Positions 1 through 45,541 of a stretch of DNA of 64,000 bases are shown here, piece by piece; position 1 is the stretch's first letter; the number at the start of each line of letters is the position of its first letter. A program made the position numbers and the translations under genes. The DNA comes from Spirochaetia bacterium (GTDB lineage Bacteria > Spirochaetota > Spirochaetia > DSM-2461). The DNA lies in contig OY764216.1 of NCBI GenBank assembly GCA_963668315.1, positions 3,392,001 through 3,456,000 of the forward strand, in the 5' to 3' direction. The notes under the pieces are model-generated. The model was not told the DNA's origin and did no database searches. It saw only the letters and a list, made by a program, of their open reading frames with translations.

Positions 1-2667
1 TGCGGGGCTTCCGGCGACGTCTTTGACCTGGTGATGAAGCTCAAGGGAATGGATTTCAAGGAGGCTCTGGCCTATCTGAAAGTGCCCCTGGCGGCTTATG
101 TTGAGACTCCGTCTCCCGTAAGGGTGACGGATGTCCAGCAACCGGCGGAGACGTTACCGGAACCGGAAGAGCCCGCTCCGGGCGCTAGTGTTGAGAGTGT
201 CTTAGACACTACCTTAGGTAGTTCGGTTCTGGAAAAAGCAAACCTGGATGACCTGGTGTCTTATTACGAGAAGAACCTGGCCGGGAATACCAAGGCCCAG
301 AACTACCTGAAAACCCGGGGCCTCCTGGACTGGGATCTCTTGAAAAGGTTCCGTATCGGTTTCTCCGATGGGAGCCTCAAGGGCCGTCTCTCCGAAGCCC
401 AGTACTCCGAGTTCAGGGATAGGGGGATCTTCCAGCCGAAGGGACAGGAGACCTTTGTCAGCTATATCGTTTTCCCTTTGCTGGACGAGCAGGACCGGCC
501 GGTCAGTCTCTACGGCCGGAAGATCGTGGACCGAAGCTCCCTACCGGCCCACCGCTACCTTAAGGGACCGCATAGCGGCCTTCTCAACGGGAAAGCCTTT
601 GGTGTTTATAAAGATCGAATGATCCTCTCTGAGAGCGTCATTGACGCCCTTTCTCTGATGGCATTAGGCTTTCAGAACGTCTGTCCCGTCTACGGCACCA
701 ACGGGGTCACCGGTGACCATTTTCGGATGATAGAAGAGAACCGGACGAAAGAGATTATCATAGCCTTCGATAACGACGAGGCGGGACGGAAGGCCTCCGA
801 AGAGCTGGCCGGTCGTCTTCTTTCGCTGGATACTTCCGTGAGAGTCGTTTCTCCTCCTGAAACTGTCAGTGATTGGAACGAGGCCCTTCTGGCCTCGTCC
901 CTGAAACAGGAGATAGAAGCCCTCATAGAAGCGGCCCCCTTGAGGAAACCGGAGAGCCTGGAATACCGCTCCGGGGTTCAGGTGGAAGAACGGGAGGGAA
1001 AATACTTCTTTACCGTCGGTTCTATTCTCTACCGGCTGATCGGTGTGAAAGAGGGTTTCGTTTCCTCTCTGAAGGTGAACATCCGGGCCGAGAAGGACGG
1101 GGAGAAGCACATAGACAACGTGGATCTCTTCTCCGCCCGGAGCCGGAGCAGCTTCGCCTATGCCCTGAGCCGCATCTTCGAGGTGGAGGCCGCCCGGGTG
1201 GAACGGGATCTGATCTCCCTTCTGGAATGGCTGGAAAGGGATCGGGACCGGAAACTCTCCGATCCCATTTCCATTATTGTCATAAGCCAGTCAGCCGTCG
1301 GTAAGAGCTACCTTATCGACACGGTCAAGAAGCTGATCCCTCCGGAGGATGTCCTTTCCATGACGAGCCTTTCCGACCAGGCCTTGAACTACCTTCCCGA
1401 GGAAGCCCTGCTTCACAAGTTCCTGATCATGGGAGAGGCGGTTCACTCCGATGCCGTGGATCACCAGATGAGGGAGATGCTTTCCGCCCAGGAGCTGAGC
1501 CGTCTGGTTACCACCAAGGACGAGAAGACCGGCAAGATGACAAGCCGCTTAGTCCGAAAGAAGGCCGTCGTTTCCGCCGTGATGAGTTCGGCCACCGGGG
1601 ATATCAACCCGGAGAACGCTTCCCGGTGCTTTGTTATCTCCACCGATGAGACGGAAGAGCAGACCCGGGCCATTCACCGGGAGCAGAGACGGAAATACTC
1701 GCTCGCGAGAATTCGGGAAAAACAGGAGGCTCTTCCTTCCATTGTGAAAGCCCACCACGCCGCCCAGAGGCTCCTGAAGGATGTGGTCATCATTAACCCC
1801 TTCGCCGACTATCTGGACTTCCCCGCCAGCCTCATGCGCTCCCGCCGGGACCATGAGCGTTTTATTGATTTGATCGCCTCGGTCTGCTATCTCAGGCAAT
1901 ACCAGAAACCTGAGCAGAAGGGGGGACTTAGTCCCCTTATTGAATGTGATCTTGAAGATTATAAGGTGGCCTATGACATCATGGTAAAGATCCTTCCTTC
2001 CACTTTATCGAACTTCCCCAAGAGCGCCCAGCTCCTGTATGAGACGATCCGGAGGATACTGAAGGAGAAGGCCGACCAGGAGAGCCTTCCTATTTCTGAG
2101 GTGTCGGTGACGCAACGGGAGATCCGGGAGCGGGAGGGACTGGAACACAACTTCGTGAAGCGGAACATCCGCCTTCTGGTGGAGTATGAATATTTGAACC
2201 AGAAAGGCGGCCAGAGCCGGGGCGGTAAGGCTTTTTACCGGATAAATCAGGACGGGCCGTTGTCCCTTTTTGATCTGTCGTCTATTCCCAAACCGGAAGA
2301 AGTGAAAGAACTTGTCAAAAGTGGGTCACGCCCTTTGACCCACTTTTATTTAAAGCGTGTAAAGGAGTTAGGAGAAAGTGGGTCAGGTTATGGAGAAAGG
2401 TATACCGAGAGAAAAGGTTTTCAGGGAGTTTTTGGTAGAGGAAAAGGTCCGGGGACGGACGGAGCAGAGCCTTTCCGGGGTACGCTCCCGGGTTCCCCTG
2501 TTCTTCCATTATCTGGAAGAGGAGAGAAGGGGAAATATCCTCACCGTAGGGATCAGGGAGGCCGCCGGTTACCAGGGCTGGCTTCTGAAAAGGAAGACTC
2601 AGGAGGGGAAGATTTATTCCGTCCGGACGGTGAACTCCTACTTTACCGCCGCCGGTTCCTTCTATGA
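1..2667 (+). CDS. CHC2 zinc-finger/Toprim DNA primase fused to a P-loop helicase-like domain (mobile-element type); 5' end lies outside the window; the tail past ~2390 overlaps the next gene and is doubtful
   Basis: Frame is open from base 1 (CGASGDVFDLV, end of a CHC2 finger); DnaG-like YLKTRGL...IGFSDG; Toprim ESVIDALS and AFDNDEAG, DWNE; Walker-A-like SQSAVGKS. Confidence 0.85.
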   Translation, partial: CGASGDVFDLVMKLKGMDFKEALAYLKVPLAAYVETPSPVRVTDVQQPAETLPEPEEPAPGASVESVLDTTLGSSVLEKANLDDLVSYYEKNLAGNTKAQNYLKTRGLLDWDLLKRFRIGFSDGSLKGRLSEAQYSEFRDRGIFQPKGQETFVSYIVFPLLDEQDRPVSLYGRKIVDRSSLPAHRYLKGPHSGLLNGKAFGVYKDRMILSESVIDALSLMALGFQNVCPVYGTNGVTGDHFRMIEENRTKEIIIAFDNDEAGRKASEELAGRLLSLDTSVRVVSPPETVSDWNEALLASSLKQEIEALIEAAPLRKPESLEYRSGVQVEEREGKYFFTVGSILYRLIGVKEGFVSSLKVNIRAEKDGEKHIDNVDLFSARSRSSFAYALSRIFEVEAARVERDLISLLEWLERDRDRKLSDPISIIVISQSAVGKSYLIDTVKKLIPPEDVLSMTSLSDQALNYLPEEALLHKFLIMGEAVHSDAVDHQMREMLSAQELSRLVTTKDEKTGKMTSRLVRKKAVVSAVMSSATGDINPENASRCFVISTDETEEQTRAIHREQRRKYSLARIREKQEALPSIVKAHHAAQRLLKDVVIINPFADYLDFPASLMRSRRDHERFIDLIASVCYLRQYQKPEQKGGLSPLIECDLEDYKVAYDIMVKILPSTLSNFPKSAQLLYETIRRILKEKADQESLPISEVSVTQREIREREGLEHNFVKRNIRLLVEYEYLNQKGGQSRGGKAFYRINQDGPLSLFDLSSIPKPEEVKELVKSGSRPLTHFYLKRVKELGESGSGYGERYTERKGFQGVFGRGKGPGTDGAEPFRGTLPGSPVLPLSGRGEKGKYPHRRDQGGRRLPGLASEKEDSGGEDLFRPDGELLLYRRRFLL
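2317..2385. repeat. AAAGTGGGTCA repeats: a perfect 12-bp inverted pair plus a third direct copy
   Basis: aaaagtgggtca 2317-2328 / tgacccactttt 2336-2347; aaagtgggtca 2375-2385. Confidence 0.85.
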
Positions 2668-3352
2668 ATACCTGAAACGAAAGAGCCTGGTTCCCGGGAA
2701 TCCCTTCCGATCCGTCCGCCAGGCCCGGGCCGATAAAACCCTTCCCCGGGATCTTCTCTCCGAGGAGGAAACGGACAGGCTCCTGGCCGCCCTCTTCACC
2801 TGGGAGGAGACCCGGGATATCCGCATCCCTTTGAGAAACTACAAGGTCCACCTCATGGCGGAGCTGATGTACTCCACCGGTCTCCGTATCGCCGAGCTGG
2901 CCGCCCTCAAGCCGGAGGACATCGACTTGAACGCTTCCCTTGTCCGGGTCTGGGAAGGGAAGGGGAGAAAGGACCGGATCTGCTACCTGAACGAGTATAC
3001 CCGTGAGATCCTAAGGATCTATTTGGAAGAGATGAGGCCGCTTCTCTCCGCCGGATGGAATGAAGGAAAGGAGACCCTCTTCTTCTCCTCCCGGGACCGC
3101 CTGGGTTCCGTAGCCAACAACCTCTTCAAAGACACTTGTAAGAAAAACACACTTAGTGTGCAGACCTGTCATGGCTTTCGTCATCTGATGGGATACCATC
3201 TTCTCCGATCCGGTTGTCCCCTTAGGTTCATTCAGCAGTTCCTCGGGCACTCCCGACTCCATACGACGGAGATCTATACCAAGGTGGATCAGGAGGAACT
3301 CAAGAACGTCATAGACCACTGTCATCCCCGACAGAGGAAAGCGGAGTTATGA
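2390..3352 (+). CDS. XerC/XerD-like tyrosine recombinase 1
   Basis: TGLRIAEL (R), GKGRKDR (K), HGFRH, LGHSRLHTTEIY; ATG 2390 is the likely start. Confidence 0.93.
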   Translation: MEKGIPREKVFREFLVEEKVRGRTEQSLSGVRSRVPLFFHYLEEERRGNILTVGIREAAGYQGWLLKRKTQEGKIYSVRTVNSYFTAAGSFYEYLKRKSLVPGNPFRSVRQARADKTLPRDLLSEEETDRLLAALFTWEETRDIRIPLRNYKVHLMAELMYSTGLRIAELAALKPEDIDLNASLVRVWEGKGRKDRICYLNEYTREILRIYLEEMRPLLSAGWNEGKETLFFSSRDRLGSVANNLFKDTCKKNTLSVQTCHGFRHLMGYHLLRSGCPLRFIQQFLGHSRLHTTEIYTKVDQEELKNVIDHCHPRQRKAEL

Positions 3353-4305
3353 TCTTCACGAGAGACCGGGCGGTCAATGTGATGAGGGAGTACATGAGAG
3401 AATCGGGCTATGCGGAGAGGACCGTCACGGGACGGGTTTACACTCTTCGCCGGTTCTTCGATTACCTGGGACCGGTAGATGTACGGGAAGTGAGCCGGGA
3501 AGATATCCACGGCTTTCTTCTGAGCCTGTCCGATACGGAATTGAAGCGTCACTCCAAGCAATTGATTCATAGCGCCATACGTCTCTTTTTCAAGGCTCTC
3601 TACGTGAAGGAGGTGATCCTGATTAACCCGGCGGAGGACTCCTTCTCCTTTCTGCCGGAGAGGGGGGAAACCAAGGTCATCTTTTCCGAGTCGGAGCTGG
3701 CCGGGTTTCTGGATAATATCGATATCAACAAACCCCTGGGACTCCGGGACAGGACTCTCTTTGAACTCCTCTATGCCACGGGGATGCGTTCCGGAGAGGC
3801 GGCCCGGCTCAGGGGGGAGGACATCAACGAAAAATCACGGACTATTCTGATCAGGCATACCAAGACCCGGCGGGACCGGGTGGTACCCGTTACGGAAACG
3901 GCCATGGCGTTTATTAAGATGTACCGGGGAAGGAGAAAAGGCGGCCCCGTCTTTCTGGGAACCGCCGGGCCGTTGCAGGGACCGGCCATGAATAACCGTT
4001 TCAAGGATCATCTGGCCGATCAGGGGATCTACCGGAAGGGACTGACCATTCATTCGCTGAGGCACTCGGCGGCGGTTCATCTTCTGCAGAACGGGGCGGA
4101 CATCCGGTATGTTCAGGAGCTTCTGGGTCATGATTCCTTGGAGAGTACGGTCATCTATACCCACCAGCTGCAGGAGGAACTCAAGCGGATCTATCGTACT
4201 CATCATCCCCGGGAGAACCGGTTTTTCAAGGAGGTGGATGAGGAGTACCGGCGGAAGATAGAGGAGCTGAAGGCTATGATTCTCTCGAAAGAAAAGAGCT
4301 GGTAA
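3349..4305 (+). CDS. XerC/XerD-like tyrosine recombinase 2
   Basis: TGMRSGEA, TKTRRDR, HSLRH, LGHDSLESTVIY; ATGA overlap with recombinase 1. Confidence 0.93.
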   Translation: MIFTRDRAVNVMREYMRESGYAERTVTGRVYTLRRFFDYLGPVDVREVSREDIHGFLLSLSDTELKRHSKQLIHSAIRLFFKALYVKEVILINPAEDSFSFLPERGETKVIFSESELAGFLDNIDINKPLGLRDRTLFELLYATGMRSGEAARLRGEDINEKSRTILIRHTKTRRDRVVPVTETAMAFIKMYRGRRKGGPVFLGTAGPLQGPAMNNRFKDHLADQGIYRKGLTIHSLRHSAAVHLLQNGADIRYVQELLGHDSLESTVIYTHQLQEELKRIYRTHHPRENRFFKEVDEEYRRKIEELKAMILSKEKSW

Positions 4306-4340
4306 TACCCTTGTTTCTGGGGTATGATTGTTTACGTATT

Positions 4341-5240
4341 ATGACGGTAACCGAAAGTAAGCCTTCAGATTTTTTACCTCACGTTTTCGGGGAGGGTCTC
4401 CCGGATTTTGAAGGTTCATCTTACTTCAATGCTCGGTGGTATGATGCGGATACGGGGCGGTTTATTACAGAGGATCCGGTTAGGGACGGCCTATTGTGGT
4501 ATGCCTATGCTAACAATAACCCCATGAAGTTCACCGATCCGACGGGGATGAGGCTCTCTGATCCGACTGAGGGATTGGATGAACATGACTTAGGTGTTGA
4601 TACGAATCCAAGTGCGGATGATTCTGGTTCGGGGTCGAGTTCAAATAATGATGAAGAGATATCTGAAGAGGAAAAAATATATAATCAGAACCAACCAAGG
4701 GAAAATGGTTTGGAAGAACTTCTAAACTATGATAGATTTGGCCCTGATCCTGATTCCTTGAATTACAATGATTTTGGACTTGATCCTAATCAATTGGATA
4801 AGATTCAAGAGGAAGTAGATGCTCATCTTGGATCAGCTGGTGGATTATATGGGAATAAAAATATGTGTGATGATTGGGCAAAGGATAGACTTGATAATGC
4901 AGGAGTTGATACTTCTGATTTGTTCGCAGGTGATCCTAATGGTACCAAAGTTGCTCAGGATATTGAAAATGCCCAAGAAAAAGGATTAGGAAGTTCTTTA
5001 CCAAAAGAAGGTTGGAGCCTTGTTTTTATGGGTAAATCGAAAGCTGGACTTGACGAACATGCTGGCCTTCTTAAAATGAATAGTGATGGATCAGGGACTT
5101 TTTATGATTCCTCTAGTACAAATGCTAATCAACTACCAGAAGGGCATAATTTTGATAATTTTGAAGATAAGTTCTCAAAAAGAGGTGGTGATAAATATGG
5201 TCACTATGAAACTCAAATATTTATTCCAGTTAAACCTTAG
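4341..5240 (+). CDS. Orphan Rhs C-terminal toxin module: 27-aa leader, Rhs core end, putative Cys/His (NlpC/P60- or CHAP-like) domain
   Basis: YFNARWYDADTGRFITEDP...NNPMKFTDPTG; tip has NMCDDWA...DEHAGLL...FYDSSS; AT-rich after DPTG. Confidence 0.85.
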   Translation: MTVTESKPSDFLPHVFGEGLPDFEGSSYFNARWYDADTGRFITEDPVRDGLLWYAYANNNPMKFTDPTGMRLSDPTEGLDEHDLGVDTNPSADDSGSGSSSNNDEEISEEEKIYNQNQPRENGLEELLNYDRFGPDPDSLNYNDFGLDPNQLDKIQEEVDAHLGSAGGLYGNKNMCDDWAKDRLDNAGVDTSDLFAGDPNGTKVAQDIENAQEKGLGSSLPKEGWSLVFMGKSKAGLDEHAGLLKMNSDGSGTFYDSSSTNANQLPEGHNFDNFEDKFSKRGGDKYGHYETQIFIPVKP

Positions 5241-5245
5241 TAAAA

Positions 5246-6334
5246 ATGGGGGTCAGTTTGAAAAATAAAATATTAGTTTCATTACTTTTAGCAATAGCCC
5301 TTTCAGCTTGTTATTCTCAGGGGTTGATTTCCTTTTCGTATAACGGGAAAATCGGATATTTAAATGAGACATTGAACGTTATATTATCTCCTCAATATGA
5401 TTCTGGTTCAAATTTTTCAGATGGTTATGCTGTTGTTGAATTAGATGAGAAATCTTATGTGATTGATGTACATGGAAATATCTTATATTCGACAAATTCA
5501 AATAATATGCACTATCTCGGAGATTCATTATTTACCATGCAAGGTAATCATTTTTCTAATTTCGATGGATTATATCAAATTGTCAATATTGATTCAAAGA
5601 GAATCATAGCTGAAAGATTAGCAGAAGTGGATTGGGAAAGAGCTAGGGATAGTAGTGCAATATCTGTTTTATATTATGATAGTGATATCGGAATTTATTA
5701 TATCAATAGTGAGGGGGAGCCTCTTTTTGAAAATACTCCTATCTATGGAGGTTATTCATTTCAGGAAGGATACGCAGTCGTTATGGTTGATGATTGGCTT
5801 TCTGCAATTATGGATAATAATGGGAATCTCGTTGCTCAAGATTTCATGAGACTTGGTAGGTTCTTTTCTGAAGGATTATGTCCAGCTATGACAAAAGAAG
5901 GAAAGACTGGCTATGTGAATACTAATGGCCAATTTGTTTTTGAGATACCTTTAGATACTTCAGATTTAAACATGAGAAAAAGTACTCCTTTTGAAAATGG
6001 TCGAGCAATTATCAATTGTCTTGAAGATGAAGATTATTGGATTGTCATTGATAATAATGGAAATTATCAGTCTAGTGAAATTAGAGCTGATGATTGTTAT
6101 GGTTTTAACGAAGGAATGGCACTACTTCATAAATATTCTTATACTAATGATGAGCACACTTATGGTTATGTAAACTCACAAGGAGAGATTATATATGATT
6201 ATCAATTTTCCAAAGCCGATGATTTCTACAATGGTTATGCTCGGGTTATTATACAAGGTAGGGATGCGATTATAGATAAAGTCGGGAATATATATTATTC
6301 AAGTGATTTGATGAAAAATAACCCTAATCCATAA
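5246..6334 (+). CDS. WG-repeat lipoprotein, probable immunity protein
   Basis: Lipobox LSAC; repeated FSDGYAVV / FSEGLCPA / GYVN..G WG-repeat units; directly downstream of the toxin tip. Confidence 0.8.
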   Translation: MGVSLKNKILVSLLLAIALSACYSQGLISFSYNGKIGYLNETLNVILSPQYDSGSNFSDGYAVVELDEKSYVIDVHGNILYSTNSNNMHYLGDSLFTMQGNHFSNFDGLYQIVNIDSKRIIAERLAEVDWERARDSSAISVLYYDSDIGIYYINSEGEPLFENTPIYGGYSFQEGYAVVMVDDWLSAIMDNNGNLVAQDFMRLGRFFSEGLCPAMTKEGKTGYVNTNGQFVFEIPLDTSDLNMRKSTPFENGRAIINCLEDEDYWIVIDNNGNYQSSEIRADDCYGFNEGMALLHKYSYTNDEHTYGYVNSQGEIIYDYQFSKADDFYNGYARVIIQGRDAIIDKVGNIYYSSDLMKNNPNP

Positions 6335-6370: not shown

Positions 6371-6526
6371 CACCCCGGCGGCGGCTCCCCTCCGGTTCAC
6401 CCGTCTGCTTTGCAGACAGACCGCCTTTGTTCCGATAAGGCGCCTTATCGGAACAAAGCCTTGAACCGTCGCTCCGCACGCCAAAGGTAGACAGAAGCAG
6501 AGCCTCTGTCTACCGCCGGGGTAATT
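6371..6526. repeat. Structured GC-rich repeat, copy 1 (shorter variant)
   Basis: Near-identical to 39029 and 40502 over most of its length; 34-bp perfect palindrome at 6425-6458; outer stem ccccggcgg/ccgccgggg; ends GGGTAATT. Confidence 0.92.
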
Positions 6527-7105: not shown

Positions 7106-7939
7106 TCAAGCTGCCTGATCCTTCCCAATCTGGAAGGACTCATAAACATCATCAGGAGTTAAATAACCAAGCCCCTGATGAAATCTTTTCCCGTTGTAGA
7201 AGCGAAAGTATTTCTGTATCCCTTTCTTCAACTCCCGGACATTCTCATCGGATCGGAGATAGATATCCTCGTATTTTAAACTACGCCAAAGACGTTCCAC
7301 ATAGATGTTGTCACGCCAGCTTCCCTGACCATCAATACTGATTCTGACTCCCGCTTCCTGGAGCGGTTTCAAAAAAGCATATGAAGTAAATTGACACCCC
7401 TGATCCGTATTAAAGATCGCCGGCGTTCCATATTTATCCATAGCTTCCTTTACGGCGGCGATACAGAACTCAGAATCCAAAGTAGTAGAGATCTTCCAGG
7501 TTAATACCTTACGGCTCCAGACGTCCATTATGGCTACAAGGTAGGCAAATCCCTTATCCATTTTAAGATAGGTGATATCAGTGGCCCAAACCTGATTGGG
7601 ATAGCGGATTCTTTTTCCCTTTAAAAGATAAGGATAGATGGGATTCTGCTTATTGGGGATAGAGGTAAATTTTCTGGGAGAAATAGCCCGTAAGCCTAAT
7701 TCTCTCATAAGACGGCGAACTCGCTTTCTGCTTGTATTATAGCCTTCTGAATTCAATTCCTCAGCCATTTTTCGATAACCATAGAATGGGATCTGAATGA
7801 AAAGTTCTTTAAGGCGAATCTTCTCTTCTATATCTTTCCGATCTTCCGGTTTAGGATCATAGTAATAAGCCGTCCTGCTGACATTGAGAATTTTACATTG
7901 CTTCCGGACAGACAATTTCCTATGATCCGGCTCTATCAT
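7106..7939 (-). CDS. IS3-family transposase OrfB (DDE)
   Basis: WATDITY, FNTDQGCQFTS, DNIYVERLWRSLKYE. Confidence 0.93.
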   Translation of the reverse strand: MIEPDHRKLSVRKQCKILNVSRTAYYYDPKPEDRKDIEEKIRLKELFIQIPFYGYRKMAEELNSEGYNTSRKRVRRLMRELGLRAISPRKFTSIPNKQNPIYPYLLKGKRIRYPNQVWATDITYLKMDKGFAYLVAIMDVWSRKVLTWKISTTLDSEFCIAAVKEAMDKYGTPAIFNTDQGCQFTSYAFLKPLQEAGVRISIDGQGSWRDNIYVERLWRSLKYEDIYLRSDENVRELKKGIQKYFRFYNGKRFHQGLGYLTPDDVYESFQIGKDQAA

Positions 7940-8238
7940 TTGTAATCCTTGCCGTACAGTTGCTTGTACTTTTTTTTTAGAAACTCATTCTCATAATTGG
8001 CTTCGCCTAGCTGTTTGAAAAGTTCCTGCTCTTTTTTCTTGAGAGTTTCCAATTCCTGATCCTTTTTGTTCTTCCGGATAAAAAGGGAACTGGCATTTCC
8101 CATAAGCTGCTTTTTCCACATGCTGATCTGGTTGGGATGAACCTCATATTCTTCCGCCAGCTCTTGAAGAGTCTTTTCTTCTTTGATTGCTTCCAGGGCA
8201 ACCTTCGCTTTAAACTCTTCATCGAATTTTCTTTTCAT
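7936..8238 (-). CDS. IS3-family transposase OrfA (HTH)
   Basis: RKFDEEFKAKVALEA...LAEEYEVHPNQISMWKK. Confidence 0.93.
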   Translation of the reverse strand: MKRKFDEEFKAKVALEAIKEEKTLQELAEEYEVHPNQISMWKKQLMGNASSLFIRKNKKDQELETLKKKEQELFKQLGEANYENEFLKKKYKQLYGKDYK

Positions 8239-28149: not shown

Positions 28150-31100
28150 ATGAAGATGAAACTTTTAAATAAAACACTTTTAAGCCTGACGATGATTTTC
28201 ACCTTGTCTTCCCTCGTCTGGGGACAGTCAAGCAATCAGAATGAAATAGATAGGATTAATGAATCGGGGATTCTGGGAGACGCCCGGTTGGAAAGCATGA
28301 GCTTTTCCAATAATTATGGAAATCTGACTCCCCCCGAACTGATGCTGGATCAGGATGTGAGTACTTCGTATGGATTAACCGAAACGGCGGGATCTGCCTG
28401 GGTCCGGTTGGATTTTCAGGATCCTGTGTATCTGTATGGCCTAACCTACGAGGGCCTCGTTCCCGAGGGCGGCATGATCTTTCTCCAGACCGAGATAGAT
28501 GATCGGATCGTGACCCTGCCTTCGGGCTATGTGAACGGCAGCAGAAGTAACGGTTTGATTGATGTAAGCCTGGAAAGGATGGTTAGTGATAACCTGATCC
28601 TCCGAATCGAAGGGGAGGACCTTTCTGCTTTTCGTCTGGATGAGATTGAATTGATAAGCGAAGCTTCCGACAGTATCCTCCAGAAGAAAGAGCTCGTGCC
28701 CGAGGATCAGAGCTATAACCGGTTCTCTTTGAATAACGATAACCTGCTTGTGGACGGGCAGATCGGAACCGTTTGGAATAATACAAACAGGGGCATGAAG
28801 AATCAGGTCTACTGGATGTTCCGTCGTGTTTTGCAGGAAGGGTATCATGATTTTGAAAAGTGGAGAGTAAAGGATGACCTCATCCTGAATGTGATTACCC
28901 CCGGAGAGATGGAATTCCTGAAGATCTTCTTTACCGAGGAAGCCCAGGGAACATTAACCCTTTCAGTTCACTCCGATGATAATTGGGTCGACGCGGTGGA
29001 GATGCATCTTGAACGGGAAAGGGGATGGCAGAAGGTTGATCTTTCCCTTTTGGGAGAGATCGACCAGATAAGATTCTCTATGGAAGATCCCCGGCAGCGT
29101 TGGAAGCCCGGAGTCTATGGCGGCATTGGGGAAGTGGAGCTCTGGGCTAAGGATAAACCTGATCAGAACCGTATTATAGATCTTTTGAATCCGGACAGTC
29201 TTGTAAACAGCAAGGGCCTTGTTTTTGATATCCCCGATCTGCGGGAAGAGAATCATTGGCTTGAAATTGCGGAATCCGGTTCCAGTGAGACCCTTCCTTC
29301 TATCTATCTGAATAGTCTTGAATTGGGAGAGGGGATCCGATTTGAGTCTAATGGCATGACTTACTGGGAGGTCCCCGTTCCCTATTATATTCTGACGGAT
29401 ACGGCTAATACATTAAGGGTCGATTCTACCGATGACAGGGACGTTATTTCTCTTCAAATTTCCACTCGGAAGGGTAATCCGAATGACTTCAGCGATCCTC
29501 ACCTCAACGACGGTCGGCTTCTGAGCGGCCGTGATTATTCCGAGACTCCCCTGGAGGAGTCTTTCAATTCCGGTGAAATGGATATTGAAGAGTTTCGTCT
29601 TTATCACGGTGAGAATGGTTCGGAAAATGTCTACGTTGAGGATGGTGGAATCCGAACTTCTTTGATCGCTCATGATAGTAACTCGTACCGGGATATCTAT
29701 ACCGTTGAGGGAAAGGCGGATCTCTTAGGGATGGGATTCCCGGGGGATCTTTATGAGATGGAAATCGCCGGTTCTCAGAATGAAATCCTGACTCCCCAAA
29801 TAAAACTGATCTACCCCGAACCGGGAGTAGAACTTCCCCAAAGTTCCACCCACCATCAGAAGGTCATAGGTATCACCGACTATCCGGAAGGACGCATTAC
29901 GGTTAACGGCGTGAGAGCCCAGGTAAGTGGTAACTACTTCTGGGTTGAAATGCGGGATTTGAGGATTAATCAGCCCGGCGAGTATGATATAACCGCAGAA
30001 GTGCGGCATCGCAATGGAAATACCGGAAGCGATGTCGCTCCCATTTTGGTTGAAGATGAAAGTATTTCCCTTCTGCTGGATCAGAATGACGATCTCTACT
30101 ACACCCGGGAAGGTTCATTTACCTTCTCAGGTAATGTCCGGGGTGGATATATTGATCTCGTTGCTAACGGGGAAACTATTGAAGTATCCCGAAGGGACGG
30201 TTTTACTAAGACATTTGCTCTGGATGAGGGCCTGAACTATTTTACCTTCCAGCTGATGGCCCGGGACGGAGAAACGATTCTGAAAAGGGAAGTCAGACAG
30301 GTCTTCTTTCAGGCTAGCACGGGAGGGCTTAAGGTAACATCCCCCGTCAGTGGTGGTTATACAAACCAGGAAAACATTACCGTCTCCGGTTCCGTAATTC
30401 CCTGGGGATTGACCTCTGTCTTTGTCAACGGTACAGAGGCTACCATTGATGGTCAGACTTTCAATTGCGTCTGTCCTCTTTCCGAAGGGGAGAATATTCT
30501 GACCGTTTCGGCTAGTTATGATACGGGGGATGTCTTTGATGTACAGATAACCGTATACAGGGATAGTACCAGCCCGGTTATTATTTCAGTAGAACCGGCG
30601 GATGGTACGATTTCCGGGGATTCATCGATCATCGTCTCCGGTTATGTGCAGGAAGACAATGCCTTTACTCTCTTTATCAACGGAACTGTTATTGAAACGG
30701 TGGGAGCCTCTTTCCGCACCTTGACGCCTCTTGCGTCGGAGGGAAACAATTCCATTCAGATCACCGCCAGGGATCGTGCTGGCAACGAGGCTGTCTATCC
30801 GATCTTTCAGATCTTCCGGGATACTACAGGGCCTGTTCCTTTTACGGTCAGTTCCAATGTCAGTGGTTGGACGAACAATAATAGACCTATCATAAGCTAC
30901 TCTACTAGTGATGAGGGTATCGGTCTGAGTCACTACGAAGTCTCCATAAACGGCCATGCTTTCTACCCCCAGGAGAGTCCTTACCAGGTTCCCTATCTGC
31001 CTGATTCAACGGATGATGAAGCGGTCCCTGTCATCGTCCGTGCCTATGATCTCTTAGGGAACTATACGGACAGTGAGATAGACTTTTACATAGATACGGT

Positions 31101-34100
31101 AGCTGCCGATGTGCCTTCAGATTTTAGAGCGATACCGGGCAAAGATGATCTAGAACTAAAATGGATTGAAACGGATGATGATGTTTGTTCCTATATATTG
31201 CAGATAGATAATGAAGAGGTCAACGTTTCGAGTGAGATGGGGGTAGAAGATGAAGAGAATAGTATAGTTCTCTTTTCCTATCGGATTGAAGATCTTGAGG
31301 TGGGGGATGTTCTTTCTTGCCAGCTTTTATCAGTAGATAGAGCTGGAAACCTCAGTGAGTCGGTTGATACCACAGGTCTAGTAGGATTATCTATTGTATC
31401 TTTGGTAGAGGATGAACCATTGATCGTTGAGTATGATGATGTTAATCTTTTTATTTCACCGGATACTTTGCCTGATGAGGTTACGGAAGTTATTGTTCAG
31501 GAATTAGAGAGTGAGCCGTTTAAAGAGAGCGCTGTAAATCCAATTCTCTCTCCTGTTTATAGTTTTACCGCATTAACAGCTGATGAAATCAAAAATCACA
31601 TTGTTTTTGATGATTTGTATGTTGGAACTATGGAATATAATGAGAAACTTATTCCTGAGGGCTTTCCTGAATACAATCTTGCCGTGTATTATTTCGATAC
31701 TAATTGGTCTAAATGGGTTAAGGTGGATAGATCTGCGGTTGACGTAGATCACAATATGATTGTTTTTTCCTCGGATCATTTTACCGAATTTTCCGTACAA
31801 GCCACAACCATGGAGGATATTACTCCTCAGGAATTAGCTGATGTTAGCTTTCCTCAGTTTTCAAATAAAATAGCCCATACTCCTGTTACTGTATCACCTC
31901 AGGGAGGTAGTGTTTCTACGTCTATGACAGAGTTAGTACTTCCTGGAAAGAATGGATTGGATCTTGATATCCGAAGGATCTACGATAGTGCTACTGCAAG
32001 AGGTGATGCTGCAGGACTAAATATGTATGCTAGTGTCTCTCTAAGTGATATCATTACTGGTAGTGCTTCTGATTTGATTAAACAGATTGGTTTAAATGTT
32101 CTTTCTGGTACTGTTTCTGCTATTGAGGGTTCAATTGAGAAATATTTTCAAAATAACGGAGACTACTCATATTCTCTTGGTCAGGGATGGAGATTGAACT
32201 TCCCTTATTTGAAAACAAATAATGGGGGTGTGATGGTTAGAACCCCCAAAGGAAGTTTTTATAATATTACTAGTATGGATGTCGACTGGGATCAGTCGGT
32301 TTCCATTGGTGCAGCGAGAACATTAACACTAGAGAATCATGAAGGTGAAGATTTCACTCTAAAAGTATCTCAAATTAGAGCAGATGTTAGTGTATCTTCC
32401 TTAAAAGATTCTGTCTCAAATTTAAAAAATGCATTAACGGAAGTTATAGGTTCAGATACCGATTTCGCGAATGGATTAACCAATTATTTAAATCTAGCTA
32501 AAAGTATTGAGAATTTAATTCCCTCTTGGATTACTGTAGGTGCTTCGTTATATACAAAGGAAGGAAATATCTACAATTTTGATATTCTTGGCCGACTTAG
32601 TTCAATCACGAATGCTACAGGAGATGTTATTGAATTTTCATATGATGATTCTCTCCTCCTTGATTATATTATAGATACTTATGGACGAAAGGTAAGATTT
32701 GAATATCAGTGGGTAAATGGTGTATCTGTATCAGTTCCTCAAGTTTCGAGGATTTGGGTTGAGGACGATGATAGAGAGATAAATTATACTTATCAGGAAG
32801 ATAGATCCGATTGTATGGGACAGCAGCTTACTTCAGCTTTTAAACTCTCTCTACCCTTATTGGATACAGCGACGGATGTGGAAGGGAGAACGTATGATTA
32901 TGATTATGATGATAAGTTTCTTCTTGCATCAAATATTGGGGCGAAAATTAATGGTATAGGATTGGTCTTGGATATTCTGAGTTATTGGACTGGTGGATTA
33001 ACGAGCCGAATAAACTCTGCGTTAGGAATTAGTGGCTTAACCGTTTACGGAGGGGTACAGTTTGAGTGGATATTTCCTATTGAACGGGTTGAAGGTTCAG
33101 GTATCGGTGTGACGAAGCTTGATACAGATGTGACAACCTTGAGCTATTTTGCTTATGATTATTGTGATTATATTTTAGGTTACATCCCGACAGGGATGTC
33201 TTTTGAATTGGCTTCTCAGGAAAGACCGTGCTATTCCAGTCTTAATCGCTATGTAGATGGCAACCTTGTCTTTAATGAGAGTTATTCATATAACTTTACT
33301 TACGGAGGATATAAGCAATTCTATAATAGTAAAACCGTTGTTACAAATGATTATTTACGTACAGAATACAGTTATTCCAAGAAGACTTTGACTCGTGAAC
33401 GCTGTCTTGATTTTTCTGATGTTCTAGCTGGAGGCATATTCCAGGATAGCCATGAGATTAGAGATGTTGTCTCCTTAAATACAGGTATTACTCGCTATAA
33501 TCTGGTTGGCGGCTCTCAATATCTGGATACGAAAAAGATGTCATATAACAATGGACTCCGTCTGACCTATGAGAAGACAGCACAAGCCGTTGATATGTAT
33601 AGGGAAGTAAACTATTCCTATGATGGCTGGGGTAACCAGGTTAAAATAACGACGACTGAACAGGCTGGAGAGATTACATCCTCCCAGATCATTTCCAATC
33701 AGTTTCAGGATAATGGGATTTCTGGTTACACGAATCCCTTTGGATCCCTTACTCTGAATAGTCCTCACATCCATGATAGGCTTCGGGGAACAGTCGTCTC
33801 TGAAACCGTATCCGGGGGAATCCTCGATGAGCCAAGAACGCTTGATAACAAAGTGAGCTGGTATGATTATAACGAATACGGGCAGCGAACTGAGGAAAGA
33901 ACTCTCATAGATGATGCCGACGGAGAAATCTGGAAAACTCAAAAGTATGAGTATTACCCGGTGGACGGAAGTTTTGAATCGGGACAGCTGAAAGCTTCTA
34001 TCGCCATGGACGGGGAGGATGAACTTCTTAGAACGGATGTGGAGTATACCTTTGATAGCGGTAGCTATACTCAGAAGAGGACTTCCCGAGATATCATTCA

Positions 34101-37100
34101 ACATAATGACTCATCGGGAACAGATAGGGTCCAGTGGACGGTGTATGATCTTCCTACAGGAAATCCGATCCTTCAGCATGACGCCCTGGGATATGAAACG
34201 GAGTATGAGTACGACAACCTGGATCGGGTGACAAAAACGGTTAAACCGGATGATAATGATCTTTCAGGCGGTTCCCGCGACGATAATCCGGTTACTCTTG
34301 TTCATTACGATGATATCAATCTGACGACCACAGTTACCGATCCACTGGGTGCGAAAACGGTCTATTCCTACAACAATTTGGGGCAGCTTGTTACTATCGA
34401 AAAGGAGAACCGCTATCCCGCTTCGGAGACTATCACAACCGGACTTGAATATGACGGTCTGGGAAATATATCCGCAGTAATCGATCCCAGAAATAATAGA
34501 ACCCAGTATGGTTATGATGGGATCAAACGACTGATATCTGAAACCTATTACGATGGGGAAGATACGGGCTCTAACAATTATCAAAAGACCTATTCCTACA
34601 ATAACTCGTTAAACCGGAGAACCGTTACGAACGAAGAGGGTGTCATCACCTACGAATATCTGGATATGAGAGGGAATGTTGTTAAGAAAGTCGAGTTGGA
34701 CGCGAACAAATGGACTTACAGAACGAATCAAGCAGTATATACTCTTGCCAACCAGCCTCTGAAAACGGAAGCACCCCTGAACCTCGTGAATGAGTATTAC
34801 TACAATGCGGCTGGACAGCTCCAGGATGAATTAGAGCCCGAGATGACGGGTTTTGATGGGAATGATGATTTTACCGGTCGTTACTGGCACCATCTTGATT
34901 ATAACAATCAGAATCAGCTTGCTGAAGAACGTGTTCTTGCCGCTGAAGGCTCTTCAGGATTGCCGACTTCGATGCCTACTGACTTCCTGGCGGATAAAAC
35001 GTTTGAATATAACGGGGCGGGAGAACTGATAAGTGAGAACTACTACTACCATGACGGGGATGGTGTTCTAAATGCACAGACCGTAAAACATATCTACGAC
35101 GAAAAGGGTAGGGAGCTAGAGACTATTGACGGCAATGGTATCAGCACATTCAAAGAATATACTGCCCGTGATCAGGTGTCAGCGGAGATAGATGCTCTGG
35201 AAAGCCGAACCACCTATCTCTATGATGATAAGGATCGTGTCCTGTCCATGACGGGACCGAGGGGGAATTCGGGGAACTACCCGGCTCTGGATTTCACCAT
35301 TGCGTACGATTATGATGATCTGAACCGGCTGATAAAGGGATATCTACCCAGACGTGCCGATCAGAGCAGCAAACCTGAAGTCACTCTTAATTATGATAAG
35401 AGGGGTAATCTTCTGAACCGGAGCGAACCGGATGGGGGAGTCACGTCCTATGAGTATAACTTCAGGAACTGGCCGACCACAGAAACAAAGAGCGGAATAG
35501 ATGGGGAAGGGAATAGCCTGGAGTATGAAACTTCCTATTCCTATGACCGAGTGGGAAATCGGGAGACCATGACCAATGCCATGGGAACCTGGACCAGCAC
35601 CTATGATGCTTTTAATCGATTGACTCAAACAACGGATCCCACAGGGGCTGCCACTACCCTTAAGTACGATAAGCTGGATCGACAGATAAAAACTACCGAC
35701 GGCAATGGGAACAGCACAAGCTTTGTGTATGACCTTTATGGCAACCTGACCTCTCAAATCGATGCAGCCGGTTATACGACAGTCTATGAATTTGATCTTC
35801 TGGGTAATCGGACCAAACTGACCGATCCCCGGAACAATTCCTGGGTAACATCCTATGATGAACTGTCTCGGGTTAATAAGGAGATAAACAGCCGTGGCGG
35901 TCAGGCCCTCTATTCTTATGATGAGGGGGGACGTTTGCTTCAGCTTATCGATCCCAATGGGACGACTATCGATTATCTCTACTATGATACGGGGCTCCCT
36001 CGAAGAGTGGCTTATACGAATGGCAGTCAAACGCAGGTCGAATCCTATACCTACGATGAAGCGGGAGCTGTTAAGACGGCGACCCTGGATGGAGTTGTGA
36101 AGGAGTATAATCTTGTTGACGGTTCCTATCAGCCTGATCCGATGGGGCTTATTACCGGCCAGAGCGTCAGCTTCGACGGAAAATCCTATACCACCGATTA
36201 TAACTATGATGTCATGAACCGTCTGAGTGACATCGGATATGCCGGAGGACTTACTATCAGCCAAAGTTGGAATAATCTAGGACAATTGGAGGGAATCACC
36301 AATTTCGCTTTCGGGTTTACCTATAATAATGTGGGATACCTGGAGAGTTATGAGCAGAATAACGGAGTTTCCGTCAGCTATGACTTCACGGATAATGGGC
36401 TTCTAGCTTCTCTGGATTATCGCAAGGCAAACAGTATGGAATCTCTTCTGGGCTATGCCTATTCCTATGATGATGCGGGAAATATGACTGCCAGGAATGG
36501 GGATGCCTACGGTTATGATGTGAAGAATCAGATGATAACAGCCAGTATCGTAGGCGATAGTCTAGCTACAGAAGAATCGGTCGATTACGCGAAGGCATTA
36601 CATGTGAGCGAGGATATCCTGGGACAGGAGAAGGCTGTTCTGGTAGGGGATACGGTTGTTCTTGATGTAACCGCTTCCTCCCTTGTTATTGACTACACCT
36701 ACCCGAAGAGGATATCCAAGGTTATTATCACTCCGGATGAGGTGGACCATAGAATTACTCCCTCTACCCTCGCCGTATTTACCTCCATGTATAACAACGA
36801 AGGGTACTACGATGAAGTGGTTGATCCGGAAATCACCATTGATGAAGCAACAGGAGTGATAACCGTGGAGTTCGCCGGAGGCCAATATGCCCGGTATATG
36901 AAGCTGCACTGCCACTTTAATGAATTGAATGAAGATGGTTCCAGCAACACCGGTTCTGCCAGCTTTAGGATCTCCGGTTCCGATGCAGTGGAAGCTTATG
37001 CCATCGTGGGGGGACGAAATGAGTTCTACATCTACGATGGGAAAGGAAACCGTATCTCGAAGAGTATCATGTCAACTGATATTGAGAGTAGTCAGTACGA

Positions 37101-38568
37101 GTACTATTCCGATTCGGATCTTTTATTGAATAACGGTTATGGTAAGTATTATTACGCCTATGATGCCAATGGAAACCTTACGGAGAAAGGTACGGAGGCA
37201 ACGGTTAAAGGTGACGAAGTAGATATTACCGATCCCGATGAGTTGACCGGCACGGCCGATGGGGATTATGCTTATTTCCGTTATACCTACGATTTGAAGA
37301 ACAGACTGGTCCAAGTTGATAAGTCTGTCGAGGGTGTGGTCATCCCCGTTGCCTCTTACACTTATGACGTGGATGGCTATCGTGTCTCAAAAACCGATCG
37401 TGATGAGAGTGTTATAGATTATGTTTTTGATCTGAACGGAAAGATCCTGGAAGAGATTTCAGCTGATGGCTCTTTACAGTATGTTTTCATCAAGGAACGG
37501 CATCTGGCTAGGATAGAGGGGGACAGCACATTGTTCTATGGAACGGATCATGTGAATTCAACAGTACTCATGACTGATGAGAATGGTGAGATCGTTTGGT
37601 CCGGTGATGTTTCGCCCTTTGGAGATTATTCGGTGATCGATTCCGATGCTTATGAGGAAATCGGACTGAAGTATAGCGGAAAGGATCTGGATGAGGATAC
37701 GGGGCTGATGTACTTCAATGCACGGTGGTATGATGCGGATACGGGGCGGTTTATCACAGAGGATCCTGTGAGGGATGGCCTAAATTGGTATTCATACGTT
37801 TCGAATAACCCGATGAAGTTCATTGATCCGACGGGGTTAATGACTGATGAACATAGAGAAGAATATGCTGATTTAGAGTCAAATGGTGCATCACAAGAAG
37901 AATTACAGACTGCACGTGAAAGATTTGAACAACAGGAACGTGAACACATTGATGATCTAACATCAATCTATAAAAGTAATTCAACTACGGAAACGGGTAA
38001 GGATGTTCTTAAAAAGACTATTCTTGAATATATGGGATTCTATAATAGGGATATTGTTCCTGACTCCGTAGAGGATTATGGTGGAACTAAAGTAACTGGT
38101 GATTTTGATGCTATTGAAGGTTATGAGAATATTGAGAGTCCGCATCCTGGCCTAGACTTTGTAGGAGGAGTTGGAGTCGCAACTCCTTTCTATACTGTAT
38201 TTGATAAAGCAACAACAAATCAAGATTCAAAGCCCTTCGTCTTATCAGTTCCTGGCACTGATATTCGTATGAGGATTAAGCATGGTGATGAAACAGATGT
38301 AATGAACTTAATGAAAGGTGTTCATAAGGGTGGATTAAATTCATTTACACCTTCACAGATGATTATTCCATTTCCCAAAAATAATAATGGTAGTTCTAGC
38401 ACTAATCCTCATTTTCATTTGGAGATGACTGCAAATAGAGGCTCTTCTGATGATCCCAGACGATTTATCAATCCTCTTGGGTTGAAAACGGGCAAATCTT
38501 TAGAGTATTTATATAATAAAGGGACGAAAGATAATCCAGAGTGGATGAAGACGAATAGATATTTCTAA
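28150..38568 (+). CDS. Giant Rhs/YD-repeat polymorphic toxin with signal peptide and C-terminal M23-peptidase-like tip
   Basis: Sec signal; discoidin- and Ig-like N-region; YD repeats ~33.6-37.7 kb; core YSGKDLDEDTGLMYFNARWYD...NNPMKFIDPTGL; tip HPGLDF...IKHGD...NPHFHLE...FINP (HxxxD/HxH). Confidence 0.92.
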   Translation: MKMKLLNKTLLSLTMIFTLSSLVWGQSSNQNEIDRINESGILGDARLESMSFSNNYGNLTPPELMLDQDVSTSYGLTETAGSAWVRLDFQDPVYLYGLTYEGLVPEGGMIFLQTEIDDRIVTLPSGYVNGSRSNGLIDVSLERMVSDNLILRIEGEDLSAFRLDEIELISEASDSILQKKELVPEDQSYNRFSLNNDNLLVDGQIGTVWNNTNRGMKNQVYWMFRRVLQEGYHDFEKWRVKDDLILNVITPGEMEFLKIFFTEEAQGTLTLSVHSDDNWVDAVEMHLERERGWQKVDLSLLGEIDQIRFSMEDPRQRWKPGVYGGIGEVELWAKDKPDQNRIIDLLNPDSLVNSKGLVFDIPDLREENHWLEIAESGSSETLPSIYLNSLELGEGIRFESNGMTYWEVPVPYYILTDTANTLRVDSTDDRDVISLQISTRKGNPNDFSDPHLNDGRLLSGRDYSETPLEESFNSGEMDIEEFRLYHGENGSENVYVEDGGIRTSLIAHDSNSYRDIYTVEGKADLLGMGFPGDLYEMEIAGSQNEILTPQIKLIYPEPGVELPQSSTHHQKVIGITDYPEGRITVNGVRAQVSGNYFWVEMRDLRINQPGEYDITAEVRHRNGNTGSDVAPILVEDESISLLLDQNDDLYYTREGSFTFSGNVRGGYIDLVANGETIEVSRRDGFTKTFALDEGLNYFTFQLMARDGETILKREVRQVFFQASTGGLKVTSPVSGGYTNQENITVSGSVIPWGLTSVFVNGTEATIDGQTFNCVCPLSEGENILTVSASYDTGDVFDVQITVYRDSTSPVIISVEPADGTISGDSSIIVSGYVQEDNAFTLFINGTVIETVGASFRTLTPLASEGNNSIQITARDRAGNEAVYPIFQIFRDTTGPVPFTVSSNVSGWTNNNRPIISYSTSDEGIGLSHYEVSINGHAFYPQESPYQVPYLPDSTDDEAVPVIVRAYDLLGNYTDSEIDFYIDTVAADVPSDFRAIPGKDDLELKWIETDDDVCSYILQIDNEEVNVSSEMGVEDEENSIVLFSYRIEDLEVGDVLSCQLLSVDRAGNLSESVDTTGLVGLSIVSLVEDEPLIVEYDDVNLFISPDTLPDEVTEVIVQELESEPFKESAVNPILSPVYSFTALTADEIKNHIVFDDLYVGTMEYNEKLIPEGFPEYNLAVYYFDTNWSKWVKVDRSAVDVDHNMIVFSSDHFTEFSVQATTMEDITPQELADVSFPQFSNKIAHTPVTVSPQGGSVSTSMTELVLPGKNGLDLDIRRIYDSATARGDAAGLNMYASVSLSDIITGSASDLIKQIGLNVLSGTVSAIEGSIEKYFQNNGDYSYSLGQGWRLNFPYLKTNNGGVMVRTPKGSFYNITSMDVDWDQSVSIGAARTLTLENHEGEDFTLKVSQIRADVSVSSLKDSVSNLKNALTEVIGSDTDFANGLTNYLNLAKSIENLIPSWITVGASLYTKEGNIYNFDILGRLSSITNATGDVIEFSYDDSLLLDYIIDTYGRKVRFEYQWVNGVSVSVPQVSRIWVEDDDREINYTYQEDRSDCMGQQLTSAFKLSLPLLDTATDVEGRTYDYDYDDKFLLASNIGAKINGIGLVLDILSYWTGGLTSRINSALGISGLTVYGGVQFEWIFPIERVEGSGIGVTKLDTDVTTLSYFAYDYCDYILGYIPTGMSFELASQERPCYSSLNRYVDGNLVFNESYSYNFTYGGYKQFYNSKTVVTNDYLRTEYSYSKKTLTRERCLDFSDVLAGGIFQDSHEIRDVVSLNTGITRYNLVGGSQYLDTKKMSYNNGLRLTYEKTAQAVDMYREVNYSYDGWGNQVKITTTEQAGEITSSQIISNQFQDNGISGYTNPFGSLTLNSPHIHDRLRGTVVSETVSGGILDEPRTLDNKVSWYDYNEYGQRTEERTLIDDADGEIWKTQKYEYYPVDGSFESGQLKASIAMDGEDELLRTDVEYTFDSGSYTQKRTSRDIIQHNDSSGTDRVQWTVYDLPTGNPILQHDALGYETEYEYDNLDRVTKTVKPDDNDLSGGSRDDNPVTLVHYDDINLTTTVTDPLGAKTVYSYNNLGQLVTIEKENRYPASETITTGLEYDGLGNISAVIDPRNNRTQYGYDGIKRLISETYYDGEDTGSNNYQKTYSYNNSLNRRTVTNEEGVITYEYLDMRGNVVKKVELDANKWTYRTNQAVYTLANQPLKTEAPLNLVNEYYYNAAGQLQDELEPEMTGFDGNDDFTGRYWHHLDYNNQNQLAEERVLAAEGSSGLPTSMPTDFLADKTFEYNGAGELISENYYYHDGDGVLNAQTVKHIYDEKGRELETIDGNGISTFKEYTARDQVSAEIDALESRTTYLYDDKDRVLSMTGPRGNSGNYPALDFTIAYDYDDLNRLIKGYLPRRADQSSKPEVTLNYDKRGNLLNRSEPDGGVTSYEYNFRNWPTTETKSGIDGEGNSLEYETSYSYDRVGNRETMTNAMGTWTSTYDAFNRLTQTTDPTGAATTLKYDKLDRQIKTTDGNGNSTSFVYDLYGNLTSQIDAAGYTTVYEFDLLGNRTKLTDPRNNSWVTSYDELSRVNKEINSRGGQALYSYDEGGRLLQLIDPNGTTIDYLYYDTGLPRRVAYTNGSQTQVESYTYDEAGAVKTATLDGVVKEYNLVDGSYQPDPMGLITGQSVSFDGKSYTTDYNYDVMNRLSDIGYAGGLTISQSWNNLGQLEGITNFAFGFTYNNVGYLESYEQNNGVSVSYDFTDNGLLASLDYRKANSMESLLGYAYSYDDAGNMTARNGDAYGYDVKNQMITASIVGDSLATEESVDYAKALHVSEDILGQEKAVLVGDTVVLDVTASSLVIDYTYPKRISKVIITPDEVDHRITPSTLAVFTSMYNNEGYYDEVVDPEITIDEATGVITVEFAGGQYARYMKLHCHFNELNEDGSSNTGSASFRISGSDAVEAYAIVGGRNEFYIYDGKGNRISKSIMSTDIESSQYEYYSDSDLLLNNGYGKYYYAYDANGNLTEKGTEATVKGDEVDITDPDELTGTADGDYAYFRYTYDLKNRLVQVDKSVEGVVIPVASYTYDVDGYRVSKTDRDESVIDYVFDLNGKILEEISADGSLQYVFIKERHLARIEGDSTLFYGTDHVNSTVLMTDENGEIVWSGDVSPFGDYSVIDSDAYEEIGLKYSGKDLDEDTGLMYFNARWYDADTGRFITEDPVRDGLNWYSYVSNNPMKFIDPTGLMTDEHREEYADLESNGASQEELQTARERFEQQEREHIDDLTSIYKSNSTTETGKDVLKKTILEYMGFYNRDIVPDSVEDYGGTKVTGDFDAIEGYENIESPHPGLDFVGGVGVATPFYTVFDKATTNQDSKPFVLSVPGTDIRMRIKHGDETDVMNLMKGVHKGGLNSFTPSQMIIPFPKNNNGSSSTNPHFHLEMTANRGSSDDPRRFINPLGLKTGKSLEYLYNKGTKDNPEWMKTNRYF

Positions 38569-38577
38569 GGGTAGAAT

Positions 38578-38992: not shown

Positions 38993-39020
38993 ATTTACCA
39001 TAAGGAGTCTTATGTTAACA
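38993..39020. other. dif-like site (11-6-11)
   Basis: ATTTACCATAA-GGAGTC-TTATGTTAACA; arms are 10/11 and 9/11 matches to the canonical XerD arm TTATGTTAAAT. Confidence 0.55.
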
Positions 39021-43567: not shown

Positions 43568-43578
43568 ACACAAAATTA

Positions 43579-43605
43579 CCGTCCTGTTCGTGGGGCGGCT
43601 TTTTC
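43579..43605 (+). terminator. Probable intrinsic terminator closing the Rhs array
   Basis: cgtcct-gttcgt-ggggcg stem (G-U pairs) followed by a T-run. Confidence 0.5.
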
Positions 43606-43648
43606 TTTATCCCAGCCTCGGGAGTGGTGCCGGGGCTGGGGATTAACT

Positions 43649-45498: not shown

Positions 45499-45541
45499 GA
45501 ATTAATTCATACCTGCCATACGCTTATGGAGTATGGTGGTT

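Follow-up and report, generated by a model that had tools for sequence, protein, structure and literature searches.

A repeat behind Rhs toxin cassettes of a spirochaete apparently carries dif-like XerC and XerD arms on two separate hairpins and may be a single-stranded substrate of host Xer recombinases

The window, by which we mean the whole 64,000-nucleotide stretch of DNA analysed, contains three full copies of a structured repeat, and every copy of this repeat begins a few dozen bases 3' of an Rhs toxin/immunity pair. Copy 1 closes a unit consisting of a repressor, a small ORF, ParA, a CHC2/Toprim primase-NTPase, two tyrosine recombinases, an Rhs tip and an immunity gene; a second, divergent unit lies directly upstream of this one. 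The primase, fused to a P-loop NTPase (1–2667; its start lies 224 nt before the window), has an in-frame deletion of roughly 60 aa immediately ahead of the Walker A region relative to seven aligned relatives, and given this deletion the unit may be non-replicating. Element tyrosine recombinases 1 (2378–3352) and 2 (3349–4305) have both kept their catalytic residues, the first scoring below the XerC/XerD cut-offs, and are followed by an Rhs core-end/toxin tip (4311–5240) and a WG-repeat putative immunity gene (5246–6334), directly upstream of copy 1. A full-length Rhs gene (3472 aa) with its putative immunity gene (28150–38988) precedes copy 2, an orphan Rhs-tip cassette with two small ORFs (39301–40382) lies between copies 2 and 3, with a period of 1474 bp, and a second orphan Rhs tip (40775–41617) is found downstream of copy 3. 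All genes given here with coordinates are on the plus strand.

Several other features of the window and of related units were recorded. A conserved leader of ~100 bp is present 5' of three Rhs tips (4311–4422, 39289–39382 and 40763–40856), and not of the full-length Rhs genes; it is a candidate target of the element's own recombinases, and a GCGTCGGG-containing motif occupies the same position in proteobacterial units. The 3472-aa Rhs shares the region 9248–38568 with a type II secretion-like cluster and a 2845-aa Ig-repeat protein, and similar-looking secretion genes flank the unit in genome G016 (locus L362), a possible route of Rhs delivery. Four to five long hairpin repeats between small minus-strand genes (48240–52452) resemble an attC cassette array. 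The mobile elements comprise two IS256-family copies in inverted orientation with a third one in the middle, an IS3-type element and an IS110 (41631–47451, 7106–8238, 49082–50173 and 55090–56636), and an integrase beside a tRNA within this set of intervals probably marks the right end of the island. Several relatives have a perfect GC-centred palindrome of 20–32 bp between the primase and first recombinase genes, a possible operator or origin (L059:1806, L060:12682, L076:11556, L077:3781, L078:11529, L092:1227 and L104:12785).

Copy 1 is the most intact (6373–6521, plus strand). It starts 39 nt past the end of the immunity gene and is predicted to fold into an outer stem (6373–6381/6513–6521) around a small accessory hairpin (6403–6417), a XerC-arm hairpin (6428–6455) and a XerD-arm hairpin (6486–6514), the last of which has a 7-nt loop and stacks on the outer stem. 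The preliminary description of this DNA, made from the sequence, had reported such nested stems, including ggttca/tgaacc, around a 28-mer palindrome at three positions, and both observations held: the palindrome is exact at 6428–6455 and 40564–40591 and has one mismatch at 39090–39117, with no match of any kind in 100 shuffles. In copy 1 it is perfect over 6425–6458, with the self-complementary spacer GGCGCC. Copies 2 (39035–39230) and 3 (40508–40704), also on the plus strand, have an additional hairpin (39124–39144 and 40598–40618, respectively), and their outer 3' stem and last hairpin, the XerD hairpin starting at 39191 (8/11) and 40665 (9/11), are degenerate. The copy 2 counterpart of the accessory hairpin has a minus-strand loop, C(GAA)G. 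In 8 of 37 family genomes (L005–L029), the additional hairpin shared by copies 2 and 3 (window 39124–39158) was also seen as a 45-nt insert within REP-like palindromes that are unrelated. The fold of 6371–6526 is branched and far more stable than those of shuffled sequences, with similar scores for DNA (z = −8.7) and RNA (z = −9.1).

The 5.6-Mb genome contains three full and two partial copies of the repeat, all five within 56 kb, the partial copies preceding the window by 3 kb and 15 kb; one sub-hairpin has short matches at three further places. This genome-wide count, with neither many dispersed copies nor an adjacent RAYT, disposes of a scattered REP or MITE, which the preliminary description had named as the observation that would tell against it: the repeat belongs to Rhs/Xer loci. 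No Y1 transposase was detected among the 40 window proteins scanned. The palindrome is absent from one local copy and from one of the two copies in genome G014; one local copy and two G014 copies have after them a long hairpin of the TTATG type, unlike the type of their host. Modules of the repeat have been lost or exchanged between copies.

The chromosomal dif of the host was located at C1:3620516–3620543, an intergenic position 2 kb from the switch of KOPS-type octamers (3,618,383), the GC skew peaking at 3.589 Mb. Its sequence is ACTTCTGATAA-TATTTA-TTCTGTCTACC. With a matrix built from six published difs the true dif ranked only 17th; it was picked by position and then confirmed by conservation, the pattern having exactly one match in each of 25 of the 38 family genomes and none in the control. 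The left arm resembles published XerC arms, and the right (XerD) arm has TTCTG in place of the TTATG carried by the published difs in the supplement of Kono 2011 (PMC3025954). Two candidates with higher matrix scores were rejected. One, at C1:3749582, appears to be coding and has no counterpart in relatives; the other, an asymmetric dif-like 28-mer of the TTATG type (38993–39020, plus strand) just past the immunity gene and before copy 2, is unlike the host dif, and its exact pattern is absent from the 37 other family genomes. In this genome only, the host dif is followed after 10 nt by a hairpin whose ends resemble the D arm. For seven of the other genomes considered (G001, G443, G737, G1042, G1044, G1045 and G1048), the host dif was not found.

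Compared with this dif, the repeat appears to carry the host XerC and XerD arms as two separate inverted repeats. The palindrome consists of two inverted XerC arms (8/11 to the host dif, 9/11 to a family variant). In the hairpin at 6486–6514, overlooked in the preliminary description, the left arm reproduces the XerD arm of the host dif exactly in reverse complement (11/11) and the right arm matches at 10/11. The host XerD-arm 11-mer occurs exactly six times in 5.6 Mb, in dif, in two repeat copies and in three other places; a permissive test of arm pairing across the genome, with a threshold of 8/11 for each arm, gave 2 matches against 1.5 expected, which is not significant alone. In genomes G016 and G575, the left arm of the C hairpin equals the C arm of the host dif at every position seen. 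The arms are thus of the Xer type, as first proposed, whereas the symmetric double-stranded 11-6-11 site proposed with them is not supported: the palindrome corresponds to the XerC half only, and the XerD half forms a hairpin of its own, at a distance of 30 nt. Nor does the repeat have the properties of a chromosomal dif. Both palindrome arms are of the XerC type, rather than a C arm and a D arm across an overlap of 6–8 bp; there are three copies, 188–222 kb from C1:3620516, rather than a single copy at the terminus; and the spacers differ (GGCGCC in the repeat, TATTTA in dif).

These arms bear on the possibility that the repeat is a structured RNA, a terminator or a single-strand origin, its likeness to dif being incidental. 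The strong RNA fold, the intergenic position just past a stop codon and the adjoining primase are in keeping with such a function, but chance would hardly produce an exact 11-mer match to the unusual XerD arm of the host, the sites are found in both orientations, and no terminator-like site was found at copy 1. Rfam covariance models matched only a tRNA in the window, and nothing at E≤1 in 11 homologous loci. We regard this explanation as very improbable.

Several features indicate which form of the DNA is likely to be recognized. In the homologues, the spacers of the C hairpins are 6–9 nt long, their right arms are often imperfect, and the loops of the D hairpins vary from 5 to 9 nt. This variation in spacer and loop length, together with the imperfect right arms, would not be accommodated by a duplex 11-6-11 site. 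Covariation was detected for 12 of the 25 consensus pairs in 21 aligned sites, the outer stem included. C(GNA)G triloops are very stable in DNA, and they were counted 55 times on the bottom strand and 13 times on the top strand of 40 distinct loci (controls: 4 and 7); by locus, 23 were bottom-biased and 3 top-biased, with 14 ties. Variable loop lengths, covarying stems and strand-biased GNA triloops of the DNA type point to folded single-stranded DNA, the alternative in the preliminary description that fits best. The palindrome might instead act as double-stranded DNA, either as a symmetric XerC/XerC site usable in either orientation or as a protelomerase-like target yielding hairpin ends. In copy 1 and G014, the palindrome is perfect over 34 bp and its central 6 bp are self-complementary; six-base symmetric spacers are also present in L062, L101 and three sites of G001. 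Spacers of 7–9 nt and imperfect right arms in other homologues argue against a duplex target, which would also leave the D hairpin, the covarying outer stem and the strand bias of the GNA loops unexplained; we consider it highly unlikely.

A scan of metagenomes for the palindrome core identified at least 118 loci, some of them near-duplicates. Among the matches listed, a partner D hairpin (CATAA..TATG, within 200 nt) accompanied the palindrome in 38 of 77 loci with a self-complementary spacer and in none of 41 control loci with a non-symmetric spacer. A same-family Xer gene was present in 10 of these 77 loci (one weak match in the 41 controls), a primase in four and an Rhs motif in six (0/41 for both), again among the matches listed. 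A spacer reading GACTGTC ruled out the idea that spacers are always GC-only. Thirteen lone palindromes in an AT context were set aside as a separate REP-like class. Lone same-core palindromes in AT-rich intergenic DNA, probably a separate REP family, were seen at L119, L121, L135, L140, L141, L148, L158, L182 and L212, and one lone same-core palindrome lies within a Y1-transposase remnant. An exact 24-mer scan of the metagenomes gave no match, and none of 14 matches to the core in viral contigs had an extended palindrome; relatives of the element were not found in viral contigs either. The core pattern was found in 5 of 401 genomes of the class, two of these appearing to be chance matches.

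Since the metagenome search had a fixed C core, a reverse search was anchored on the D hairpin alone. The TTCTG D hairpin was detected in 11 of 331 genomes of the class (control, 1). Six of 11 sites outside the genome under study had a C-arm hairpin within 250 nt; two others were interrupted by a contig end or an IS, and three resembled chance matches. Of 12 spirochaete sites for which the regions were fetched, six directly followed an Rhs/immunity pair and six had no Rhs gene in the available contig. The sites occur in both orientations relative to genes, which lends some support to the earlier suggestion of use in either orientation, in that sites face both ways relative to their cargo. The split layout is, from these comparisons, apparently shared with other spirochaetes and with about 40 of the metagenome loci listed, beside primase-Xer-Rhs units. 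One locus (L062), in a MAG labelled Christensenellaceae, has a spirochaete-type unit and a TTCTG site, indicating misbinning or recent transfer; its recombinases group with spirochaete ones, and no dif was found for this MAG.

A primase search identified 56 loci in GTDB genomes, mostly Spirochaetota. A nested form of the mimic, with two inverted dif-like sites, was present as 32 sites in 18 of these loci (reversed control, 0; two calls appear weak), and in 13 of the 21 loci of at least 14 kb. No nested site was found in this genome or in the other 38 primase loci, many of which are short, and no dif mimic was seen by eye in four related proteobacterial/Leptospira loci. Oceanispirochaeta units carry attC as well as dif mimics, so that a replacement of one by the other, considered initially, was wrong. 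The spacer of the nested sites pairs on both the C side (64/72) and the D side (58/72), which rules out pairing on the XerC side only. Catalysis by XerC alone is therefore not implied for these sites, which, to judge from their pairing, may use both enzymes. A form of the unit with a single Xer (NCBIfam NF002331) was found in 31 plasmid records, behind CdiA/FHA/Rhs-type genes, and also occurs in tandem arrays and as circles of 8.8 kb and 11.3 kb. Two circular PLSDB records (L245 and L246; NZ_CP055112 and NZ_CP072857) consist of one or two units of primase, Xer, toxin tip and immunity gene, and each record carries a nested dif mimic; they may be excised forms or collapsed tandem arrays.

The preliminary description had assigned the repeat to the element's own Xer pair, and this assignment is weakened by four observations. 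First, the D arm matches the host dif, the lineage-specific change included: wherever the host dif was found, D arm and dif agreed in type, both being TTCTG in some hosts and TTATG in others. Second, the type of D arm switches within the tree of element recombinases, with five changes on a quick tree of 68 sequences with one doubtful label (L077), at least four being forced by well-supported branches. Third, the same D hairpin follows two local units, the recombinases of which lie in different clades and are at most 38% identical. Fourth, of 10 genomes with the site, four yielded the tandem Xer pair; it was not found in the other six, which are 81–96% complete. The genome also encodes a host xerC/xerD-like pair at 2.54 Mb (C1:2544275 and C1:2546889). 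The D arm thus appears to follow the host lineage rather than the element recombinases, host and element lineages being partly confounded, and the host Xer proteins probably bind the repeat.

Alternatively, the element's recombinases, alone or with host XerD, may bind the site and circularise or integrate the unit; in a mixed-synapse variant, the element Xer would occupy the C hairpin and host XerD the D hairpin. Both window recombinases have the catalytic residues, NCBIfam classes their single-Xer relatives as XerC-like, and the C arm here fits dif less well (8/11) than the D arm (11/11). Furthermore, in 10 of the metagenome loci listed, the site lies directly downstream of, and on the same strand as, a same-family Xer gene, an arrangement that equally favours the element enzyme. 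The missing pair in six genomes, the identity of the C arms with those of the host in G016 and G575, and the common D hairpin after units with Xers of different clades count against this alternative, which we consider doubtful.

Our preferred reading, to which we assign a probability of about one half, is that the repeat is a folded single-stranded DNA substrate of host XerCD, and that two copies recombine and release the cassette between them. One strand would be exposed as single-stranded DNA during replication, probably through the primase-NTPase of the unit. XerC would bind the hairpin of the palindrome and XerD the other one, where its role would be structural only. XerC would cut after ATAA in two copies and the strands would be swapped, the self-complementary spacer providing the bases that pair after the swap. 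As this spacer is self-complementary, with its 3' half acting as the template in the loop-capped C half-site, two copies could accept each other's strands, and because a loop closes each half-site, a single exchange is proposed to complete the reaction. The products would be a single-stranded DNA circle with one intact site and one site left behind. The chromosomal dif would be spared because the GC spacer GGCGCC cannot pair with the AT spacer TATTTA, and this mismatch fits the location of the repeat copies 188–222 kb from dif. The element's own recombinase pair would act elsewhere, for example on the conserved leader before each orphan tip.

No junction at the centre of the palindrome was found among the local copies, the partial copies breaking elsewhere, or in contigs from four sequencing runs (at most two samples), which cannot reveal rare circles. 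Some copies are probably dead, since there is no natural junction among the local copies and two homologous copies lack the palindrome. It is conceivable, although unlikely in our view, that XerCD binds the repeat without moving cassettes, the repeat being the remnant of an attachment site, an anchor or decoy without catalysis, or a very small element that depends on XerCD and inserts after immunity genes. The loss and exchange of modules between copies would agree with this, as would sites that face both ways and the lack of an Rhs gene in the available contig for 6 of 12 spirochaete sites. Covariation and the conservation of the arms across phyla argue instead for current selection, and the low copy number, in one island only in this genome, is also unfavourable to it.

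The substrate proposed here, with cassette release by host XerCD, was compared with known systems. The pdif modules are 28-bp duplex C/D sites of the dif type that flank cargo at a distance from the terminus and have spacers different from that of dif. The repeat shares with them dif-like arms away from the terminus, beside cargo, and a spacer unlike dif, but has no duplex C/D site in its native sequence. Like integron attC, it is a folded single-stranded site after cargo genes, one per cassette, with variable inner hairpins and strand-biased loops; it differs from attC in having dif arms, not R/L boxes. There are no R''/R' boxes at the base of one hairpin in a fixed orientation, the fold being branched and closed by a GC stem and the sites facing both ways, and the adjacent recombinases score 98 and 117 against an integron-integrase cut-off of 265.

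XerC-only exchange on a folded single-stranded site is established for CTX (PMC4246890), where XerC cuts between arm and spacer and the exchanged strand must pair beside the cut. The CTXphi papers (PMC4246890 and PMC6744903) describe attP(+) as folded single-stranded DNA that rebuilds XerC and XerD arms for the host Xer proteins, and the repeat resembles it in this respect; relatives of the element also carry the nested form with two inverted sites. As in CTX-class IMEX, the arms mimic the host XerC and XerD sites (C, 8/11; D, 11/11 and 10/11). Unlike attP(+), the arms are two separate loop-closed hairpins, so that the window copies are split, in place of a single C-spacer-D duplex folded from two inverted dif-like sites, and the spacer mismatches dif. 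The copies lie 188–222 kb from dif, the cargo consists of Rhs toxin tips, and the unit encodes its own primase and two tyrosine recombinase genes, which, with the distance and the spacer, does not correspond to integration at the host dif without an integrase of its own.

Repeated intergenic motifs with a XerD-family gene are described for rAID-1 (bioRxiv 10.1101/471110), and polyimmunity loci adjoin XerC/D genes (PMC3482391). The rAID-1 class is set at 44% or more identity to the B. fragilis recombinase, with an array of immunity genes only downstream; the cargo here includes toxin tips. The locus is similar in having a Xer-family gene beside conflict-gene arrays with repeated intergenic sequences, and differs in its toxin-tip and immunity pairs and in the presence of a primase-NTPase, ParA and a repressor; the available main-text descriptions of those systems, from which we set the locus apart, include no dif mimic or hairpin. 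The accessible portions of PMC7764402 and PMC5737381, consulted with the IMEX paper (PMC12715192), contained nothing on this motif. No description of a split dif or of primase-Xer-toxin units was found in full-text searches of the literature available without subscription. The repeat is real, conserved and apparently undescribed, probably a single-stranded site that exploits host Xer proteins and is tied to polymorphic-toxin cassettes; it would work like CTX attP or attC and yet belongs to neither.

For this spirochaete family, the analysis also identifies the dif, whose XerD arm is unusual, and links it with a primase-Xer-toxin unit present from spirochaetes to enterobacteria. If dif is indeed divided between two hairpins, tyrosine recombinases would have a substrate of novel geometry, intermediate between CTX attP and attC. 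Tentatively, and as less probable than not, we propose a widespread integron-like system. In it, orphan polymorphic-toxin cassettes and primase-Xer units that replicate would rely on the housekeeping XerCD by way of a “split dif” of two loop-capped half-sites, a single XerC strand swap between two hairpins sufficing for recombination, with no Holliday junction to resolve and with dif left untouched. The origin and movement of orphan toxin/immunity cassettes in Rhs/CDI loci are usually put down to unspecified recombination (PMC3482391). A host-XerCD site at the cassette borders makes the question of cassette movement directly testable, and the integron-like system, if true, would give orphan Rhs/CdiA tips a dedicated route of formation and movement.
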